Below are positions 1,094-12,285 of a stretch of DNA of 33,263 nucleotides, one piece after another. The number at the start of each line of letters is the position of its first letter. Positions within the stretch are counted from its first letter, which is position 1. Under the pieces are notes generated by a model. The model ran no database searches, had not been told where the DNA came from, and saw nothing but the letters and a program-made list of their open reading frames with translations. Source of the stretch: a virus (Duplodnaviria > Heunggongvirae > Uroviricota > Caudoviricetes); the IMG/VR virus record IMGVR_UViG_2913192161_000007, positions 1 to 33,263 of that record. The stretch is one strand, 5' to 3'. The position numbers and the translations under genes are program-made.

Positions 1094-2164
1094 TTAATGC
1101 GCTGCCGCCAAAGTGCCGCCAACTTCGTTAGGAACTAGAGTTAGTGCTTCAGAAACGTAATCAGCCCATTCCTGCGAAGAAAATGCTTGTAAAGAATAGG
1201 CGTGTTTTCTGAATTTAAACCTCAACTTACCAACATATAAGTAATTATAAATGTTGTCGTAATGTGGTATATCTTCATTATATATCAAACGAATTAGTTT
1301 TCTTGATAGAAGATATGATATTTCTAAAATATCGGCGAATACTTGTTCTTCAAGTGTAAATGTTTTTAATTGATACCCATCATATTTTATCAAACAGTAT
1401 ACATGAGATATGGGGGATGTACATATCAGGTCTAATAACGAGGCTGTATTATATGACAAAGTGTTAAGTCGAATCATGTAACTTAATGGATTATATTCAT
1501 CTATAGAGTGTTGAACCGACAGAGTATTATTAATTGTGTTTAAGTACTCCTTTAATTGCACTAAAAAATCAGGGCTTGCGGTGAAGTTAGATGTGGTCTC
1601 TATAGTTGATTTGTTGTATATTTTTGTATATAAAAGATATGGGTTGGAAATTTTAATTTCATCTGCTGTAAACAAAGTGATATTTGGTTCGCCATTGAAT
1701 TTAATGAGGTTTCCATCTGAGCCTCTCGCGCTTTGAAGATTGTAGGCGAATATTTCCTTTGTTTTCTCAATAAAGTTTTTCTCATGTGCTAAATATCTAT
1801 CGACTGCATTTTTCGTTTCAGCGGTGTTGATCTGAGCTTCGGTTTGTATAGTGCGATGTATATTGTTGACGATCGAAGCCAAAGGAACTGCACTAGCTAG
1901 CAATAGTAGAGGGAATTTGCTTATTTCGTAAAATCTTGAATAGCCATGTGCGGAGAGTACTGGTTCTTTTCCCCACCATGTGAAAAAACCAAAATAGATA
2001 AAGGAAAATAAAGGTGTTAAAACTGAAATCCAAAATAATTTCTGACGAAATAAATTTCTTTTATCAAGCATGTACCATTTTTTTACTATTGTAATAAATA
2101 CTAATAAAACGATTGCTGCAATATAAATCACTGTATAACAAGTATCACTTAACATGATTTTCAC
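1094..2164 (-). CDS. Hypothetical polytopic membrane protein, AT-rich cargo gene (unknown function)
   Basis: 356-aa ORF. GTG at 2162-2164 overlaps the int stop codon (alternative ATG at 2153-2155). Three hydrophobic N-terminal segments (IYIAAIVLLVFITIV, ISVLTPLFSFIYFGFFTWW, FPLLLLASAVPLASIV) then an Asn/Tyr/Ile-rich soluble region. Base composition visibly far more AT-rich than flanking phage genes. Confidence 0.6.
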   Translation of the reverse strand: MKIMLSDTCYTVIYIAAIVLLVFITIVKKWYMLDKRNLFRQKLFWISVLTPLFSFIYFGFFTWWGKEPVLSAHGYSRFYEISKFPLLLLASAVPLASIVNNIHRTIQTEAQINTAETKNAVDRYLAHEKNFIEKTKEIFAYNLQSARGSDGNLIKFNGEPNITLFTADEIKISNPYLLYTKIYNKSTIETTSNFTASPDFLVQLKEYLNTINNTLSVQHSIDEYNPLSYMIRLNTLSYNTASLLDLICTSPISHVYCLIKYDGYQLKTFTLEEQVFADILEISYLLSRKLIRLIYNEDIPHYDNIYNYLYVGKLRFKFRKHAYSLQAFSSQEWADYVSEALTLVPNEVGGTLAAAH

Positions 2165-3177
2165 TCAATATAATTTAAAGGATTCTTAGTTACTGCATCT
2201 TCTAAGTGTTCTGGTGAAAAATGAGAATAGATCATCGTCATTTTTATATCGGCATGGCCCAGAATATCGCGCAGCACCAGTATGTTTCCGCCATTCATCA
2301 TAAAATGGCTGGCGAATGTATGACGTAGCACGTGAGTGCATTGGCCCTCTGGCAGCTCGATGCCAGCTCGCTTTACTGCTCGTTCAAAGGCTTTTCTGCA
2401 CGGGGTGAATAGCTTCCCTCTGTTCTTGGGGAGTTCGTCATACAGATCTTGAGATATCGGCACGGTGCGGTTTTTCTTACCCTTCGTCTTGGTATAAGTG
2501 ATGCGGTATTTAGATAACTGATGGCCCTGCAGGTTTTCGGCTTCACTCCAGCGTGCGCCGGTGGCCAGGCATATTTTTGCAATCAAAAGCAGACTGGGGT
2601 TTTGAGAATCAGCGCAGGCATCTAGCAGACGTTTAATTTCTTCCGAGGTCAGGAACGCCAGTTCCCCCTCAGCGATTTTAAATGTTGGCAGCCCGGCGAG
2701 AGGATTTGGTGCTGACCAGTGGCCTAGTTTTTTCAATGTGCCGAAAACCGATGATAGGTTACGTTGCTCAAGATTCACCGTGCGTGGTTTTACTGGCGAC
2801 ATTAGTGTGCCGTCTTCGTTACGAACGTCACCTTTTAACCGTGCTTCGCGGTATTTCGTAAAGTCACCGGCTGTCAGTTCTGAGGCGATGGGGTCGCCTA
2901 GACCATTACAGATAATTCTAAGTTTCGCCATGAGGCGCTTGGGGTCTGCGAGTGTCTGACCATACAGGGAATACCAAAGCTCAATTAATTCTGATAGGCG
3001 TCGCCGATCATCCTTTTCACCCAACCACGGTTTTTTATTCACTTCTTCCATTGTGAAGCTTTCAAAAGCAATGGCTTCGCCTTTCGTAGCAAATTGCTTA
3101 CGCACGCGCTTACCATTGCGTCCATTGGGATAGCACTCACACAACCATTTTCCGTTCGGCTGTTTTCTGATGGTCAT
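2161..3177 (-). CDS. int: Phage integrase, tyrosine recombinase (P2/186 Int family)
   Basis: 338 aa. Catalytic-type motifs ARWSE, HVLRHTF and MTMIYSHF near the C-terminus. Adjacent to attL, downstream of cI on the same strand. Confidence 0.9.
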   Translation of the reverse strand: MTIRKQPNGKWLCECYPNGRNGKRVRKQFATKGEAIAFESFTMEEVNKKPWLGEKDDRRRLSELIELWYSLYGQTLADPKRLMAKLRIICNGLGDPIASELTAGDFTKYREARLKGDVRNEDGTLMSPVKPRTVNLEQRNLSSVFGTLKKLGHWSAPNPLAGLPTFKIAEGELAFLTSEEIKRLLDACADSQNPSLLLIAKICLATGARWSEAENLQGHQLSKYRITYTKTKGKKNRTVPISQDLYDELPKNRGKLFTPCRKAFERAVKRAGIELPEGQCTHVLRHTFASHFMMNGGNILVLRDILGHADIKMTMIYSHFSPEHLEDAVTKNPLNYIE

Positions 3178-3178
3178 A

Positions 3179-3811
3179 TCAAAGGCTCTTAATGATTTTC
3201 AGTGCGCGGCCTACTACCTCAATGTCATCTAGGCCACACTCAAACGATGAATCATCCTGATGTACTACTAATTTGTTTCCCGGGAGTCGAGTCAATTTAA
3301 CAATGCTTTTTATCCCGTCGATATCGACTAACCACATACCATTTACTGGTGGTGTTTGGTTGCGATCTATTAAATAAGAATCACCAGAAGTAGTCACCAG
3401 CAGTAGGTTGCTTGAGTCTGAGGGGAGTATGCTGCTATCAATGATTGCTTTTCCAGCATCGATCAATAAACCACCGTTGAGAGTCGCCTTGTCAATTTCA
3501 GGAGATACTAGTTCAGAAAGAGGTATAACCTTGCTGGAGTTCACGGAATTGATATTTTTTTGGGGTTCAATGTTTGAACCTGGCTCCCCCTGTCCGGTGG
3601 TTAGCCACAGTAAAGAAACTCCTGTTTCCAAGGCGCACTGAATCACCCACTCTGCAGGAAAACTATCTCTTAAGTATCTGTTTGCCATGGTGCTTTTTGA
3701 TGCGCCTAAGTGATCGCAAAGTTGCTGTCTGGACTTGAAATCATAGGCTGCCATTAGTCTATGGATAGCCTCTCTTCCCCCTGTATTCTCTCCAACCTTT
3801 ACATGTATCAT
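3179..3811 (-). CDS. cI: CI-type immunity repressor (N-terminal HTH, C-terminal domain with S24-peptidase-like motifs)
   Basis: 210 aa. HTH-like SRQQLCDHLGASKSTMANRY. C-terminal SGDSY followed by IKSIVKLTRLPGNKLVV resembles the Ser/Lys region of LexA-type folds. Divergent from apl/cII and tightly coupled to int. Confidence 0.75.
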   Translation of the reverse strand: MIHVKVGENTGGREAIHRLMAAYDFKSRQQLCDHLGASKSTMANRYLRDSFPAEWVIQCALETGVSLLWLTTGQGEPGSNIEPQKNINSVNSSKVIPLSELVSPEIDKATLNGGLLIDAGKAIIDSSILPSDSSNLLLVTTSGDSYLIDRNQTPPVNGMWLVDIDGIKSIVKLTRLPGNKLVVHQDDSSFECGLDDIEVVGRALKIIKSL

Positions 3812-3823
3812 TTTTTAATCCTG

Positions 3824-3852
3824 TTGACGTATCAAATATTGGATCGTAGTAT
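3824..3852 (+). promoter_or_regulatory. Putative early lytic promoter pR (-35 TTGACG, 17-bp spacer, -10 TAGTAT)
   Basis: TTGACG at 3824-3829 and TAGTAT at 3847-3852 with a 17-bp spacer, 80 bp upstream of the apl-like ORF. Confidence 0.55.
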
Positions 3853-3875
3853 CTCGATGTATCAAATATTGAATC
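3829..3875. promoter_or_regulatory. Two 17-bp direct repeats (gtatcaaatattgGatc / gtatcaaatattgAatc), each nearly palindromic: candidate CI/Apl operators
   Basis: Copies at 3829-3845 and 3859-3875, centre-to-centre 30 bp. First overlaps the pR spacer, second overlaps the predicted transcription start. Confidence 0.5.
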
Positions 3876-3930: not shown

Positions 3931-4173
3931 ATGAGCACTGATATTTCAATTCGTGTACCAAAAGAGATGGCTACGCCTGCAGAGTTCGCGGAATGGGAAG
4001 GTATCTCCCGCGGCTCCGTGTATCAAAAAATTCACCATGGTCAGCTTGCTAAATACATGGTCAAGAAAGAAAAAAACAAAGGCCGCGTAAGCCTGCGTTA
4101 TTTAATGTACAAAACCGATCAGGTCCGTGAATCCCTCGGTCATTCCAACTTCCGCGTCATTGTTGGTAAGTAA
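3931..4173 (+). CDS. Apl/Cox-like excisionase and repressor-antagonist (small HTH protein)
   Basis: 80 aa, first gene of the rightward operon after pR, RBS gggag. Position and size match 186 Apl / P2 Cox. Confidence 0.6.
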   Translation: MSTDISIRVPKEMATPAEFAEWEGISRGSVYQKIHHGQLAKYMVKKEKNKGRVSLRYLMYKTDQVRESLGHSNFRVIVGK

Positions 4174-4205: not shown

Positions 4206-4715
4206 ATGTTTGATTATAAGATTTCCAAACACCCGCATTTTGATGAAGCCTGTAGAGCTTTTGCACTTCGTCACAATATGGCGAAGCTGGCAGAACGTGC
4301 AGGAATGAATGTCCAGACTCTGCGAAACAAACTCAACCCAGATCAACCGCATCAGCTCAATGCGCCAGAAATCTGGCTGCTTACCGATCTGACTGAAGAT
4401 TCAACGCTGATAGATGGTTTTCTGGCACAGATTCACTGCCTGCCATGTGTACCGATTAATGAGGTAGCAAAAGAGAAACTGCCGCATTACGTCATGAGTG
4501 CAACCGCAGAGATCGGGCGTGTTGCTGCAGGTGCGGTATCTGGCGATGTAAAAACCAGTGCCGGTCGTCGTGATGCCATCAGCAGCATTAATTCTGTAAC
4601 ACGACTGATGGCGCTGGCGGCTGTTTCATTGCAGGCCCGTTTACAGGCTAACCCTGCGATGGCGAGTGCAGTTGATACTGTGACTGGCCTCGGTGCTTCA
4701 TTCGGTTTGCTGTGA
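4206..4715 (+). CDS. cII: CII-like lysogeny-establishment activator (186 CII family)
   Basis: 169 aa. N-terminus MFDYKISKHPHFDEACRAFALRHNMAKLAERAGMNVQTLRNKLNPDQPH matches my recollection of 186 CII and its exact length. RBS aagggggt. Confidence 0.7.
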   Translation: MFDYKISKHPHFDEACRAFALRHNMAKLAERAGMNVQTLRNKLNPDQPHQLNAPEIWLLTDLTEDSTLIDGFLAQIHCLPCVPINEVAKEKLPHYVMSATAEIGRVAAGAVSGDVKTSAGRRDAISSINSVTRLMALAAVSLQARLQANPAMASAVDTVTGLGASFGLL

Positions 4716-6006: not shown

Positions 6007-6860
6007 GCACCATCCTGAAATGGGCGGGAAATAAAACCGCCATAATGTCCGAACTGAAAAAGCATCTTCCTGCTGGCCCGCGACTGGTTGAACCTTTCGC
6101 GGGTTCCTGTGCAGTGATGATGGAGACGGATTACCCCAGCTATCTTGTTGCGGATATTAATCCTGATTTAATCAACCTCTATAAAAAGGTTGCTGCTGAT
6201 TGTGAGGCGTTTATATCTCGTGCCAGAGCTTTATTTGAGGAAGCAAACAGGGAGGTGGCTTATTACAACATAAGGCAGGAGTTTAATTACTCCACTGAAA
6301 TTACTGATTTCATGAAAGCGGTATATTTCCTGTATCTCAATCGTCACGGTTACCGTGGTTTATGTCGCTATAACAAGAGCGGGCATTTCAACATTCCCTA
6401 CGGTAATTATAAAAATCCGTATTTCCCTGAAAAAGAAATTCGCGCATTTGCAGAAAAGGCCCAGCGAGCAACGTTTATCTGCGCCAGCTTTGATGAAACG
6501 CTGGCGATGTTGAAGGCGGGGGATGTGGTGTATTGCGATCCGCCGTATGACGGTACGTTTTCCGGCTATCACACTGACGGCTTCACTGAAGATGACCAGT
6601 ATCACCTGGCATCTGTTCTTGAACATCGGTCATCAGAAGGACATCCGGTCATTGTTTCTAACAGTGACACATCCCTGATCCGTTCGCTGTATCGCAATTT
6701 TACTCACCACTACATCAAGGCAAAACGCAGCATCGGTGTGGCAGCTGGCGAGGGTAAATCAGCAACAGAAATCATTGCTGTTTCCGGGCCGCGCTGCTGG
6801 GTGGGATTTGATTATTCGCGTGGCGTGGACAGTTCTGCCGTGTACGGAGTACGTGCATGA
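6003..6860 (+). CDS. dam: DNA adenine methyltransferase (Dam-like, GATC class)
   Basis: N-terminal LKWAGNK, FAGSCAV and catalytic DPPY, with overall similarity to E. coli Dam. ATG 6003 with RBS ggaggtg; overlaps both neighbours by 4 nt. Confidence 0.85.
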
Positions 6861-9271
6861 GTCATGCCGATATGAACAACTGCTGCGGCTTTAACGAGGC
6901 TGCCGCAGCATTCTCATGGAACAGCCCGAAAAAGGCCATTAACCCTTATCTGGACCCGGCGGAAGTTGCGCCGGTTTCTGCGCTTTCAAACCTGATCACT
7001 CTGTACGCTGCCGATAACGAGCAGGAACAACTGCGCCGCGAGGCACTGAGTGATCAGGTCTGGGAGCGTTATTTCTTTAATGAATCCCGTGATCCTGTCC
7101 AGCGCGAAATGGAGCAGGATAAGCTAATTAGCCGGGCAAAGCTGGCGCATGAGCAGCAGCGTTTTAATCCGGACATGGTCATTCTGGCGGATGTCAACGC
7201 TCAGCCTTCCCATATCAGCAAGCCGCTGATGCAACGTATTAAATACTTCAGCAGCCTGGGCAGGCCAAAGGCTTATTCCCGCTATTTACGTGAGACGATT
7301 AAGCCATGTCTGGAACGACTGGAGCATGTACGCGACAGTCAGCTATCTGCATCTTTTCGCTTTATGGCAAGCCATGAAGGGCTGGACGGCCTGCTGATCC
7401 TGCCTGAAATGAGTCAGGATCAGGTGAAACGCCTGTCCACCCTGGTAGCTGCGCATATGAGTATGTGCCTTGATGCAGCTTGTGGTGATTTGTATGCCAC
7501 CGATGACGTTAAGCCAGAAGAAATCCGCAAGACATGGGAAAAGGTGGCAGCGGAAACCCTGCGTCTGGATGTCATCCCACCTGCGTTTGAGCAACTCCGT
7601 CGGAAAAGAAACCGCCGTAAACCCGTGCCCTATGAACTCATTCCGGGTTCGCTGGCGCGTATGTTGTGCGCCGACTGGTGGTATCGGAAATTATGGAAGA
7701 TGCGTTGCGAATGGCGGGAAGAGCAGTTGCGCGCTGTTTGCCTGGTCAGCAAAAAAGCATCTCCTTATGTCAGCTATGAAGCCGTGATGCATAAACGTGA
7801 GCAGCGCCGTAAGTCGCTGGAGTTTTTCCGTTCTCATGAACTGGTGAACGAAGACGGCGACACGCTGGACATGGAGGATGTGGTAAACGCCAGCAGCAGC
7901 AACCCTGCGCATCGCCGCAATGAGATGATGGCCTGTGTTAAAGGTCTGGAGCTTATCGCGGAAATGCGCGGTGACTGCGCCGTTTTCTACACTATCACCT
8001 GTCCGTCGCGTTTCCATTCCACGCTAAATAACGGCAGACCAAACCCGACCTGGACAAACGCGACGGTAAGACAAAGCAGCGATTATCTGGTCGGCATGTT
8101 TGCTGCATTTCGTAAGGCGATGCACAAAGCCGGGTTGCGCTGGTATGGCGTGCGGGTGGCTGAGCCGCATCATGATGGCACAGTTCACTGGCACCTGTTG
8201 TGTTTCATGCGCAAAAAAGACCGCCGTGCCATCACTGCATTACTGCGTAAGTTTGCCATCCGTGAAGACCGCGAGGAGCTGGGCAATAACACTGGGCCGC
8301 GCTTTAAGTCTGAGTTGATTAACCCGCGCAAAGGAACGCCGACAAGCTACATCGCGAAATATATCAGTAAGAACATTGACGGTCGTGGTCTGGCTGGCGA
8401 GATCAGCAAGGAAACGGGTAAATCTCTGCGTGATAACGCTGAATACGTGAATGCCTGGGCGTCTCTGCATCGTGTTCAGCAATTCCGCTTCTTTGGTATT
8501 CCGGGGCGTCAGGCTTACCGTGAACTTCGCTTGCTGGCTGGTCAGGCGGCAAGGCAACAGGGTGACAAAAAAGCAGGTGCGCCGGTACTGGATAACCCGC
8601 GTCTTGATGCCATTCTGGCTGCTGCTGATGCTGGTTGTTTTGCCACCTACATCATGAAGCAGGGCGGCGTACTGGTACCCCGTAAATATCACCTCATCAG
8701 AACCGCTTATGAAATCAACGAAGAGCCGACCGCCTATGGCGATCACGGCATTCGTATTTATGGCATCTGGTCACCCATTGCAGAGGGCAAGATCTGCACT
8801 CATGCAGTGAAGTGGAAAATGGTTCGTAAAGCCGTTGACGTTCAGGAGGCGGCAGCCGACCAGGGCGCTTGCGCCCCTTGGACTCGTGGCAATAACTGTC
8901 CCCTTGCTGAAAATTTGAACCAACCGGAGAAAGACAAATCAGCTGATGGGGATACCAGAACGGATATCACCCGCATGGATGACAAAGAGTTGCACGAATA
9001 CCTGCACAGTATGAGCAAAAAAGAGCGCCGGGAACTGGTAGCAAGGTTACGCCTGGTTAAACCGAAACGGCGTAAAGACTACAAACAGCGAATTACAGAC
9101 CATCAGCGACAACAGCTCGTCTATGAGCTGAATTCCAGAGGATTTGATGGCAGCGAGAAAGAGGTCGATTTGCTCCTTCGCGGTGGCAGTATTCCGTCAG
9201 GAGCAGGCCTGCGTATCTTCTATCGGAACCAGCGTTTGCAGGAAGATGATAAGTGGCGGAACCTGTATTAA
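6857..9271 (+). CDS. A: Replication initiation protein (P2 A-like rolling-circle nickase)
   Basis: 804 aa. HxH-type motif [10 protein letters not shown] and active-site Tyr motif YIAKYISK. Position after the early operon. Confidence 0.85.
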
Positions 9272-9364
9272 TTACGCTGATTAACAATTAATGCTCTAAA
9301 TAATAAGCACAGGATAAATCCTATTGATTTTAAAAAAACTTTTTACTTTAACGATATTATTATG

Positions 9365-9384
9365 TACTGTATGTAAAACCAGTG
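9365..9384. promoter_or_regulatory. LexA box (SOS operator) upstream of the Tum-like operon
   Basis: TACTGTATGTAAAACCAGTG: CTGT-N8-CCAG, one mismatch to CTGT-N8-ACAG, in AT-rich promoter-like sequence 46 bp upstream of the first ORF. Confidence 0.6.
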
Positions 9385-9429
9385 GTTAAGTATACAGTAT
9401 TATCTACCCACAGTGAGATAGGAGGGAAG

Positions 9430-9618
9430 ATGCAGGATTATTTTTTAGAGTCGTTGAAACTCCAGCGAATTGATTTTTTTCTTAAGCTTGTAGTGGCCAG
9501 TGAATGTAGTGATCAGGAAAAAGAGCTTGCGCTGCTTTGGATTTCAGAACTGACGGATGAACTCATGGCAAAAATCAGAACCCACGAATATAACCGCTCA
9601 ATGGATGTTGTTAACTGA
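9430..9618 (+). CDS. Small hypothetical protein, first cistron of the SOS-controlled Tum-like operon
   Basis: 62 aa from ATG 9430 with RBS ggaggg (ORF track begins at GTG 9382, inside the LexA box). Followed 10 nt later by the DinI-like gene. Confidence 0.45.
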   Translation: MQDYFLESLKLQRIDFFLKLVVASECSDQEKELALLWISELTDELMAKIRTHEYNRSMDVVN

Positions 9619-9628
9619 GGGGTAATTT

Positions 9629-9862
9629 ATGCGCATTGAAATAATGATCGATAAAGAGCAAAAAATTAGCCAGTCTACCCTGGACGCCCTTGAATCCGAG
9701 CTTTACCGCAATCTGCGCCCCCTGTATCCCAAAACGGTAATTCGCATCCGCAAAGGTAGCTCTAACGGTGTGGAACTGACCGGACTGAAACTGGACGAAG
9801 AAAAAAAACAAGTGATGAAAATTATGCAGCAGGTATGGGAAGACGACAGCTGGCTGCATTAA
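9629..9862 (+). CDS. DinI-family protein (Tum-like antirepressor candidate)
   Basis: 77 aa, MRIEIMIDKEQKISQSTLDALESELYRNL...VWEDDSWLH, the DinI-type pattern. RBS gagggg. Located after the replication gene as tum is in 186. Confidence 0.75.
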   Translation: MRIEIMIDKEQKISQSTLDALESELYRNLRPLYPKTVIRIRKGSSNGVELTGLKLDEEKKQVMKIMQQVWEDDSWLH

Positions 9863-10063
9863 GAAACGTTGCTGGCGTCTGAACTTGCTTCTGGCGTCAG
9901 CAAGGTTGAACAATGAGCTGTACAAGGCGTTAGCCGCCCTCAATGCGGACAGATAACGAAAAGGCCGGAGAGGATTCAATTTCGTGAAGGGTTAGGCGTG
10001 GGAAGCCCCTAGCAAGCGGCAGGCTTTTTGCTATGATGGTTTCTTTTTCTCAGGAAAAAGGCA

Positions 10064-10723
10064 ATGGACATCATTCAGTTACTTGAAGTACTGAAGCCCG
10101 CTAAAGACGTGGTAACGGTACAAATTGCGAGTCAAAAGGAGCCACTGACTCCATGGTTTGACCTCGCAAAAGCGGTTCTGCCAGCTGCGGCAACTGCTTT
10201 TGTTGCATGGCGGGCCATGAATCGTTCACACCGCCAATTTGAAATCACCTCAAAACGGCAAGCAGCTGAATTCGACAAAAATATTGCGCAGCAAACCAAA
10301 GCACTGAAAGTGCAAACTCAAATTGCTACGGAAATTGAGATAAAAAAAGAAGAATGTCGGAACGTGCGGGAATCATGTGCCCAGTATCTATCCTTAGCGC
10401 TTGAATCTAATAGGTACAAAGACGATTATAACCTTGCAATGGATTACATTCTTAAGGGTAATAACGATTTTATTGATAAGAGAAATGTAGCACATGAAAG
10501 CTACATTACATCATCGCATCGTACCCTTTCAGCAAGGTTGTTATTGATGACATACCTTAATCCTGAAACCTCACCTTCCTTCTTTGAATCAATCAAGAAT
10601 GTCGATGCATTGCTGATTTCGTCAGGGCCAAACTTCGGTGGTGCCGTAGGTAAATGCCTTGCGGAATGCCGGATGTACATAGAGAAAAAACAAGCCGAAA
10701 TATCTACAATCTCAACAGAATAA
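10064..10723 (+). CDS. Hypothetical membrane-anchored protein, cargo gene at the tin/old-equivalent locus
   Basis: 219 aa, RBS aggaaaaagg. One hydrophobic segment (LAKAVLPAAATAFVAWRAM) followed by a charged, helical-looking region. No motif recognised. Confidence 0.6.
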   Translation: MDIIQLLEVLKPAKDVVTVQIASQKEPLTPWFDLAKAVLPAAATAFVAWRAMNRSHRQFEITSKRQAAEFDKNIAQQTKALKVQTQIATEIEIKKEECRNVRESCAQYLSLALESNRYKDDYNLAMDYILKGNNDFIDKRNVAHESYITSSHRTLSARLLLMTYLNPETSPSFFESIKNVDALLISSGPNFGGAVGKCLAECRMYIEKKQAEISTISTE

Positions 10724-11241: not shown

Positions 11242-12285
11242 TCAGCCTCGTTTGCCCTTAAGTCCTAAATCATAAGCTTCAAAACGGATCACCTCTTTAT
11301 CCAGCCAGCCATTCAGCTCCTGCAGTCGCTTTTGCAGTGGCATCAGTTCATTGCGGACGAAGACACGGCTCGCTTTTTCCACATCACCAAAGCCGCCAGT
11401 GTTGTTGGGAATGATGCCCATCATTTGCGGCGGTACGCGGTGAGCCGCCATCATGTCATCGCGGCTGACGTTCTTGATGTTCAGAAATTCATCCTTCGCC
11501 GCGACTTCCGACAACGGGATAATCTGAATGCCATCTTTTTTGCCGTTAGGCGAGTACATAAACAGGTTGCGGAAGTTGCCCGGTCCTTTAGCACTTTTCA
11601 TTGCCTTGCGGATGTTATTCACATCCTCCTGGTTCTGCGCGGCGTCGGTCATGTACATGATGAAGCCTGCATGACTGCCGTTAATGTAATACTTGCGGCG
11701 GAACAGCGTGGCAGACTCGTTGAGCAGGGCGGATGGAATAGCAGAAAGATAGCCGGGCAGGCCGTAGATCTCCTGATTAATGTCAGGTTCCATCAGATGA
11801 AAAATGCTGCCTTTCGTGAACTGATACGGTTGTGTGGTCATGCCATATTGCACAAACCAGTATGTTTCAAGGTCAAGCCCGCGCCGGGTGTATTTTGCCA
11901 GTGCAGGCTCCAGTGAAATAACTTCACCGAAACGGTTCGTGCGTTTCTCCAGGTAGGCGTTACCAAAAACCAGATAGTCCTGCACAAAACGGGTAAATGC
12001 CTGCTGGCTGAGAAGGCGATGTGGAATATAGGTACTGCTGATAATGTCACGCTTAACACTGATCGGGGAGCTGTGGTGCACGGCGGCGCGGAAGGTGCGC
12101 GCCAGTCCGTCAAAGCTGACGGGCGGCTCATACCAGCGATCCATCTGTACGCATTCCACATAGTCCAGCAGTTCGCGGCGGTCCAGTACAGGAATGGGAT
12201 CACCAAAGCTGAAAGCCTCCGCAACGGATTTTTTAGTTTCTTCTGCAGTTACGGTTTCGCCTGGCGCGATATGTTCTTTCATCAA
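11242..12285 (-). CDS. Q: Portal protein (P2 gpQ-like)
   Basis: 347 aa, immediately downstream of and overlapping the terminase large subunit. Size and position match P2 Q. Confidence 0.85.
   Translation of the reverse strand: MMKEHIAPGETVTAEETKKSVAEAFSFGDPIPVLDRRELLDYVECVQMDRWYEPPVSFDGLARTFRAAVHHSSPISVKRDIISSTYIPHRLLSQQAFTRFVQDYLVFGNAYLEKRTNRFGEVISLEPALAKYTRRGLDLETYWFVQYGMTTQPYQFTKGSIFHLMEPDINQEIYGLPGYLSAIPSALLNESATLFRRKYYINGSHAGFIMYMTDAAQNQEDVNNIRKAMKSAKGPGNFRNLFMYSPNGKKDGIQIIPLSEVAAKDEFLNIKNVSRDDMMAAHRVPPQMMGIIPNNTGGFGDVEKASRVFVRNELMPLQKRLQELNGWLDKEVIRFEAYDLGLKGKRG

Follow-up and report, generated by a model that had tools for sequence, protein, structure and literature searches.

A two-gene module downstream of replication gene A

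The window, by which we mean the whole 33,263-nucleotide stretch of viral DNA analyzed here, has the layout of a P2/186-like (Peduoviridae) prophage. An integrase gene (2161-3177, minus strand) and cI (3179-3811, minus strand) are followed by an apl-like gene (3931-4173), cII (4206-4715), and replication gene A (6857-9271), all three on the plus strand, with portal gene Q at 11242-12285 on the minus strand. cI encodes a 210-amino-acid immunity repressor of the 186 type, the presumed target of the first small ORF described below. Promoter elements and two small ORFs make up an SOS module at 9342-9862, directly downstream of gene A, which is also its position in 186, Fels-2, and PSP3. A preliminary description of this DNA had reported a LexA box and two tandem small ORFs, all of which are present in the same places; its reading of them as a Tum-type induction module of a 186/Fels-2-like phage is supported by the 186-type CI and by the location after gene A.

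A search with the tum region gave matches in 54 phage records, and among 5426 complete E. coli genomes, 1072 carried a similar region. A protein identical to ORF1 is listed as "MULTISPECIES hypothetical protein [Escherichia]" (137 contigs), so the host of the phage is probably Escherichia. Elsewhere in the window, a 356-amino-acid ORF (1094-2164, minus strand) adjoins the integrase gene; its only matches are PHROG 17460 (function unknown) and, weakly, DUF3810, and it has no PADLOC match.

A putative p95-like promoter overlapped by paired LexA boxes

A putative -35 hexamer, TTTACT (9342-9347, plus strand), was assigned by homology only: it aligns with the TTTACA conserved in Fels-2-like phages and with the annotated -35 element of the 186 promoter p95. 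It precedes by 17 bp the hexamer TACTGT (9365-9370, plus strand), a putative -10 element identified by alignment, which is identical to the annotated -10 element of p95 and equal to it in position relative to the LexA box. p95 is itself a LexA-repressed promoter whose -10 TACTGT lies within a LexA box, as in the window. A simple consensus promoter scan did not detect the SOS promoter, because its -10 element is weak, and it was therefore assigned through the alignment to p95. On this basis TTTACT and TACTGT are the putative -35 and -10 elements of a p95-like SOS promoter.

The -10 equivalent is contained in LexA box 1, TACTGTATGTAAAACCAGTG (9365-9384, plus strand), which is the LexA-box-like site overlapping the promoter that the preliminary description had pointed out and which has the best LexA-like score in the window. 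Its position is conserved across relatives, and the chance expectation for the strict pattern is 0.23. A second box, TACTGTATACTTAACCACTG (9380-9399, minus strand), which had been missed in the preliminary description, has the second-best score and shares 5 bp with box 1; one of its half-sites is CAC, not CAG. The two boxes are oppositely oriented and offset by 15 bp, with CCAGTGG common to both, and together they form a 35-bp imperfect palindrome (17+1+17) at 9365-9399. On a home-made heterology index, which was trained on an informally compiled set of 25 E. coli LexA boxes and reproduces published values only approximately, box 1 scored 4.87 and box 2 scored 9.23 in a search of both strands of the 33-kb window, in which the third-ranked site scored 13.25. 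A search for the combined pattern, CTGT-N9-CAGTGG-N8-ACAG, gave a single hit in the window and no hit in any of 100 shuffles. With the two best-scoring sites of the window both in the SOS promoter, chance does not account for the LexA site. LexA would occupy both boxes.

The double box is kept in ten relatives, namely, Fels-2, DuoHS, 813R9, 500465-1, SopEPhi, Yersinia MLG42, Kp4845-2, Cartapus, ST13phi12.1, and ST437phi4.1. Phages 186 and PSP3, unlike the window, have a single LexA box, as do ESSI2-type phages. Another start for ORF1, GTG at 9382, which would give a product of 78 amino acids, was considered and rejected: it lies inside the LexA operator and upstream of the likely transcription start, and it is also opposed by the relatives, in which an ATG with AGGAGG is conserved.

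The operator resembles that of colicin Y

A 49-nt operator query matched 1009 plasmids. In the two top plasmid matches, which were inspected, the segment matching the operator precedes the colicin Y gene by 9 nt, with 88 to 90% identity over 42 nt. The colicin Y operator, found on pCol-let-type plasmids, shares the 35-bp unit, in which CCAGTGG is the overlap of two LexA boxes; the promoter sequence flanking it, however, is unrelated to that of the window, and the unit drives a bacteriocin in the plasmids and a probable phage antirepressor in the window. Colicin operators are reported to be bound by two LexA dimers on overlapping SOS boxes, and these double-box operators are reported to repress tightly (PMC2994835). 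The similarity may result from LexA constraints instead of common descent. Paired LexA boxes of the colicin type probably provide tight repression and a high damage threshold in the phage.

Two small ORFs, the second of the DinI family

ORF1 (9430-9618, plus strand; ATG to TGA) encodes 62 amino acids and appears to be an antirepressor gene of the tumA type. Its Shine-Dalgarno sequence, AGGAGG (9420-9425, plus strand), was read from the sequence and is conserved in relatives. The protein is orthologous to STM2728 of Fels-2, with 90.3% amino acid identity over the full length, and is 87% identical to ECHS_RS04495 of DuoHS. Its similarity to the N terminus of 186 Tum is weak by BLASTP (25% identity over 36 amino acids; pairwise E value, 2e-5). 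Alignment with hhalign placed residues 3 to 43 of ORF1 on residues 3 to 43 of 186 Tum, collinear and with an E value of 8.6e-5, at a probability of just 60%; a cysteine at position 26 is common to the two proteins.

No Pfam family matched ORF1; the protein matches PHROG 698 (function unknown). The predicted model is a two-helix hairpin (pLDDT, 89.8). No PDB sequence matched ORF1, and a Foldseek search of the PDB with the model returned generic helical hairpins only, all with E values above 1. In a large protein database, the family consists of proteins of about 62 amino acids without a DinI domain. UniRef and some phage records call its members "levan regulatory protein/domain," other records call them "hypothetical," and a Tum-related name tends to go to the DinI-like gene; the naming of the two genes is likely a misannotation.

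ORF2 (9629-9862, plus strand; ATG to TAA), which corresponds to tumB, encodes a DinI-family protein of 77 amino acids. The DinI pattern noted in the preliminary description was borne out by a match to Pfam PF06183 (E value, 4.2e-23; 81.9 bits against a cutoff of 24.2). ORF2 also matches PHROG 189, at profile positions 71 to 148 of 151, and it is 40% identical to residues 71 to 145 of 186 Tum and 96% identical to ECHS_RS04500 of DuoHS. Against NCBIfam NF007893, the equivalog model for chromosomal DinI, it scored 44.6 bits, below the cutoff of 111 bits. This marks ORF2 as a paralogue of phage origin and not as the DinI of the host.

The preliminary description was also correct in treating ORF1 and ORF2 as separate cistrons, 10 nt apart and in different frames, each with its own Shine-Dalgarno sequence. 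That of ORF2, GAGGGG (9617-9622, plus strand), was likewise read from the sequence and overlaps the ORF1 stop codon, an overlap that would permit translational coupling of the two ORFs. RNA folding gave a stable hairpin 3' of the ORF2 stop codon, with an 11-bp outer stem and without a T tract (9869-9903, plus strand), at the site where 186 has the partial terminator t95a. A terminator scan found none after ORF2, and the hairpin is not a canonical intrinsic terminator.

A variable slot lies between the DinI gene and portal gene Q. It is occupied in the window by a 219-amino-acid ORF (10064-10723, plus strand) for which no match was found in Pfam, PHROGs, PADLOC, or NCBIfam, and of which just three complete E. 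coli genomes carry a homologue, at 93% identity. In relatives, the slot holds other genes, for example, those for TIR-domain or Hypoth_Ymh proteins, and the gene downstream of the DinI gene in the window differs from those of Fels-2 and PSP3. By analogy with orf97 of 186, the 219-amino-acid ORF may be cotranscribed with the SOS operon.

The tum region is split in related phages

A small ORF followed by a 77-amino-acid DinI-like ORF is found at the same site after gene A in Fels-2 (STM2728 and STM2726.1) and in PSP3. The Fels-2 tum region is 85.6% identical to that of the window at the DNA level and has the same double LexA box. In PSP3, tumA is annotated as "similar to 5' end 186 tum; UV induction of prophage" and tumB as "similar to dinI and 3' end of 186 tum"; the junction there is an in-frame TAG with a 3-nt gap, whereas that of the window is a TGA with a 10-nt gap and a +1 frame. 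No similarity of PSP3 TumA to ORF1 or to 186 Tum was detectable by BLASTP or hhalign, and PSP3 is thus evidence for the gene arrangement but not for homology of the first cistron at the sequence level. DuoHS, a prophage of E. coli HS with ECHS_RS04495 and ECHS_RS04500 as the two genes, shares the promoter and the double LexA box of the window; its CI is just 44% identical to that of the window, and the two phages are probably of different immunity types.

Phage 186 has an antirepressor acting on a 186-type CI, as is presumed for the window, and shares with the window a DinI-like module and a downstream accessory gene. Its Tum had been described in the preliminary description as a single longer protein, which it is: both modules are fused in one polypeptide of 146 amino acids, with the internal starts for DinI-like products kept, whereas in the window they are split. 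The N-terminal module of Tum is about 25% identical to ORF1. The GfoA and GftA operons of the Gifsy phages are likewise LexA controlled and combine a DinI homologue with a small antirepressor, but the two genes stand in the opposite order, in lambdoid phages, and both the antirepressors and the repressors are from unrelated families (PMC3121763).

The split had been called unusual, and an inactivating frameshift in an ancestral single gene had been offered as one explanation. Neither claim held. Two cistrons are the annotated layout of PSP3 (tumA and tumB) and of Fels-2, and Lemire et al. 2011 (PMC3121763), with reference to Bunny et al. 2002, describe the split tum region explicitly. A history in which a frameshift or a nonsense mutation split a single 186-like tum, leaving the module inactive or decaying, would fit the correspondence of ORF1 to the N-terminal half and of ORF2 to the C-terminal half of 186 Tum, their different frames, and the 10 nt between them. 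In twelve relatives from several Peduoviridae genera, both ORFs are nevertheless complete, at 62 and 77 amino acids, with junctions that vary in stop codon (TGA, TAA, or TAG), in spacer (1 to 12 nt), and in relative frame (0, 1, or 2), and with a Shine-Dalgarno sequence of its own for each ORF2. Median pairwise dN/dS values were 0.073 for ORF1 and 0.062 for ORF2 (range, 0.03 to 0.15); both ORFs are under purifying selection. Stand-alone forms dominate among the homologues of the ORF1 family and of the N-terminal part of 186 Tum, for which the close homologues are mostly proteins of 63 to 92 amino acids, several of them named "Tum protein." In addition, the DuoHS prophage, which has the same layout, is inducible (PMC12055606). 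The conservation thus refutes a broken gene, to which we give almost no credence.

At the position matching the start of ORF2, phage 186 still has translation signals, a Shine-Dalgarno sequence and a GTG start, from which a DinI-like product can be made separately. Given this internal start, the conservation of the split ORFs, and the predominance of stand-alone homologues, it is the fused Tum of 186 that looks like the exception. In Escherichia phage 500465-1 (901-1431), both tum cistrons look frame-shifted: the middle part of TumA reads "ERGWLCSG," and the DinI ORF starts late and is changed at its C terminus. This represents either a sequencing error or decay in that single phage.

ORF1 is most likely the antirepressor

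The preliminary description had given the antirepressor function to the DinI-like protein. It could be argued that ORF2 inactivates CI and that ORF1 is an accessory or a leader peptide, since the DinI-like part and the antirepressor of 186 belong to the same polypeptide and ORF2 is strongly conserved. The gene needed for induction of DuoHS, however, is the homologue of ORF1. Its induction depends on LexA cleavage and on ECHS_RS04495, the 62-amino-acid gene upstream of the DinI-like gene: in-frame deletion of this gene abolished mitomycin C-induced lysis, and lexA(Ind-) separately did the same, as reported in that study (PMC12055606). The deletion could have been polar on the downstream gene, through a coupling that reduces its expression, so that the DinI-like gene may be required as well. 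Three further points nonetheless count against ORF2 as the antirepressor. In PSP3, antirepressor activity is reported for the upstream gene (PMC3121763); ESSI2-type phages lack a DinI gene and yet combine a LexA box with a TumA-like ORF; and the 186 record labels full-length Tum alone as inhibiting DNA binding by CI, the truncated DinI-like products being listed as modulators of SOS induction. We conclude that ORF1, not the DinI-like ORF2, is most likely the antirepressor, and we give the opposite assignment little credence.

A second departure from the antirepressor model concerns CI itself, which had been said to carry S24-peptidase-like motifs, so that the phage might combine antirepression with RecA-mediated cleavage of a LexA-like, self-cleaving repressor. 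Those motifs were reported by eye, and none were found with computational tools. CI matches the Pfam families Phage_CI_repr (E value, 5.4e-31) and Phage_CI_C (E value, 6.4e-28), the latter being the oligomerization domain of 186 CI, and no S24 family was matched at an E value of 0.1 or less. Its only relatives with solved structures are those of 186 CI (PDB 2FJR; E value, 1.7e-27), to which it is 33% identical. Tum inactivates 186 CI by binding to it, and cleavage is not involved (Shearwin et al. 1998, cited through PMC3121763). The domain assignment of CI contradicts the combined strategy, which we consider highly unlikely, and induction by an ORF1 antirepressor acting on an uncleaved CI is retained.

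ORF1 is more conserved than CI

ORF1 is 78 to 89% identical in phages whose CI is just 36 to 52% identical to that of the window. For DuoHS, Fels-2, and Cartapus, the CI identity is 44 to 52%. In these phages, the N-terminal domain of CI is 62 to 79% identical to that of the window and the C-terminal domain 31 to 49%. The cI-apl operator region of DuoHS differs in sequence from that of the window. Because ORF1 and the N-terminal domain of CI are conserved and the C-terminal domain of CI is not, the comparison suggests that TumA may target the N-terminal domain.

Between cI and apl, a direct repeat, GTATCAAATATTG(G/A)ATC, is present at 3829-3845 and 3859-3875 (within 3824-3875). The two copies flank a promoter with the elements TTGACG and TAGTAT separated by 17 bp. 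Since they flank the cI-apl promoter, the repeats are likely to be CI operators at pR.

Discussion

The module described here is already known: it is the split tum SOS induction module previously described for Fels-2-like prophages of the P2/186 family. With high confidence, we assign it as the SOS induction operon of a Fels-2-like (Peduoviridae) Escherichia prophage, in the split tumA-tumB form, which would be repressed by LexA and in which ORF1 would be the antirepressor of a CI that is left uncleaved.

The observed sequence features and homologies, together with the type of CI and the fact that both ORFs are conserved, lead us to propose a mechanism. In the lysogen, LexA bound to the two overlapping boxes, which cover the -10 element and the likely start site, would keep the operon off. 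DNA damage would lead to RecA-stimulated self-cleavage of LexA, freeing the p95-like promoter. The ORF1 protein, a predicted helical hairpin, would bind the 186-type CI noncovalently and block its binding to the operators, so that the lytic promoter would fire, and CI would stay uncleaved during induction. Direct contact of ORF1 with CI as the means of preventing operator binding is proposed by analogy with 186 (Shearwin et al. 1998) and from the effect of the DuoHS deletion. ORF2, translated separately, most likely modulates the RecA filament and would thereby tune the SOS signal in the manner of the truncated products of 186 Tum.

As a discovery the module is of little importance; the practical point is the naming of the probable antirepressor gene. 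A similar region is present in about one-fifth of complete E. coli genomes, and correct labeling is therefore useful, as it helps to predict the inducibility of prophages. Two features are cheap to test. The double LexA operator bears on induction thresholds, and the far greater conservation of TumA than of CI bears on cross talk between prophages. As a tentative proposal, to which we attach less than even weight, TumA of the ORF1 type might be a broad-range antirepressor whose contact on CI is the DNA-binding domain at the conserved N terminus and not the region on which immunity type depends; SOS-induced TumA might then cross-induce coresident P2-like prophages that differ in immunity type, with the colicin-type operator setting a high damage threshold.
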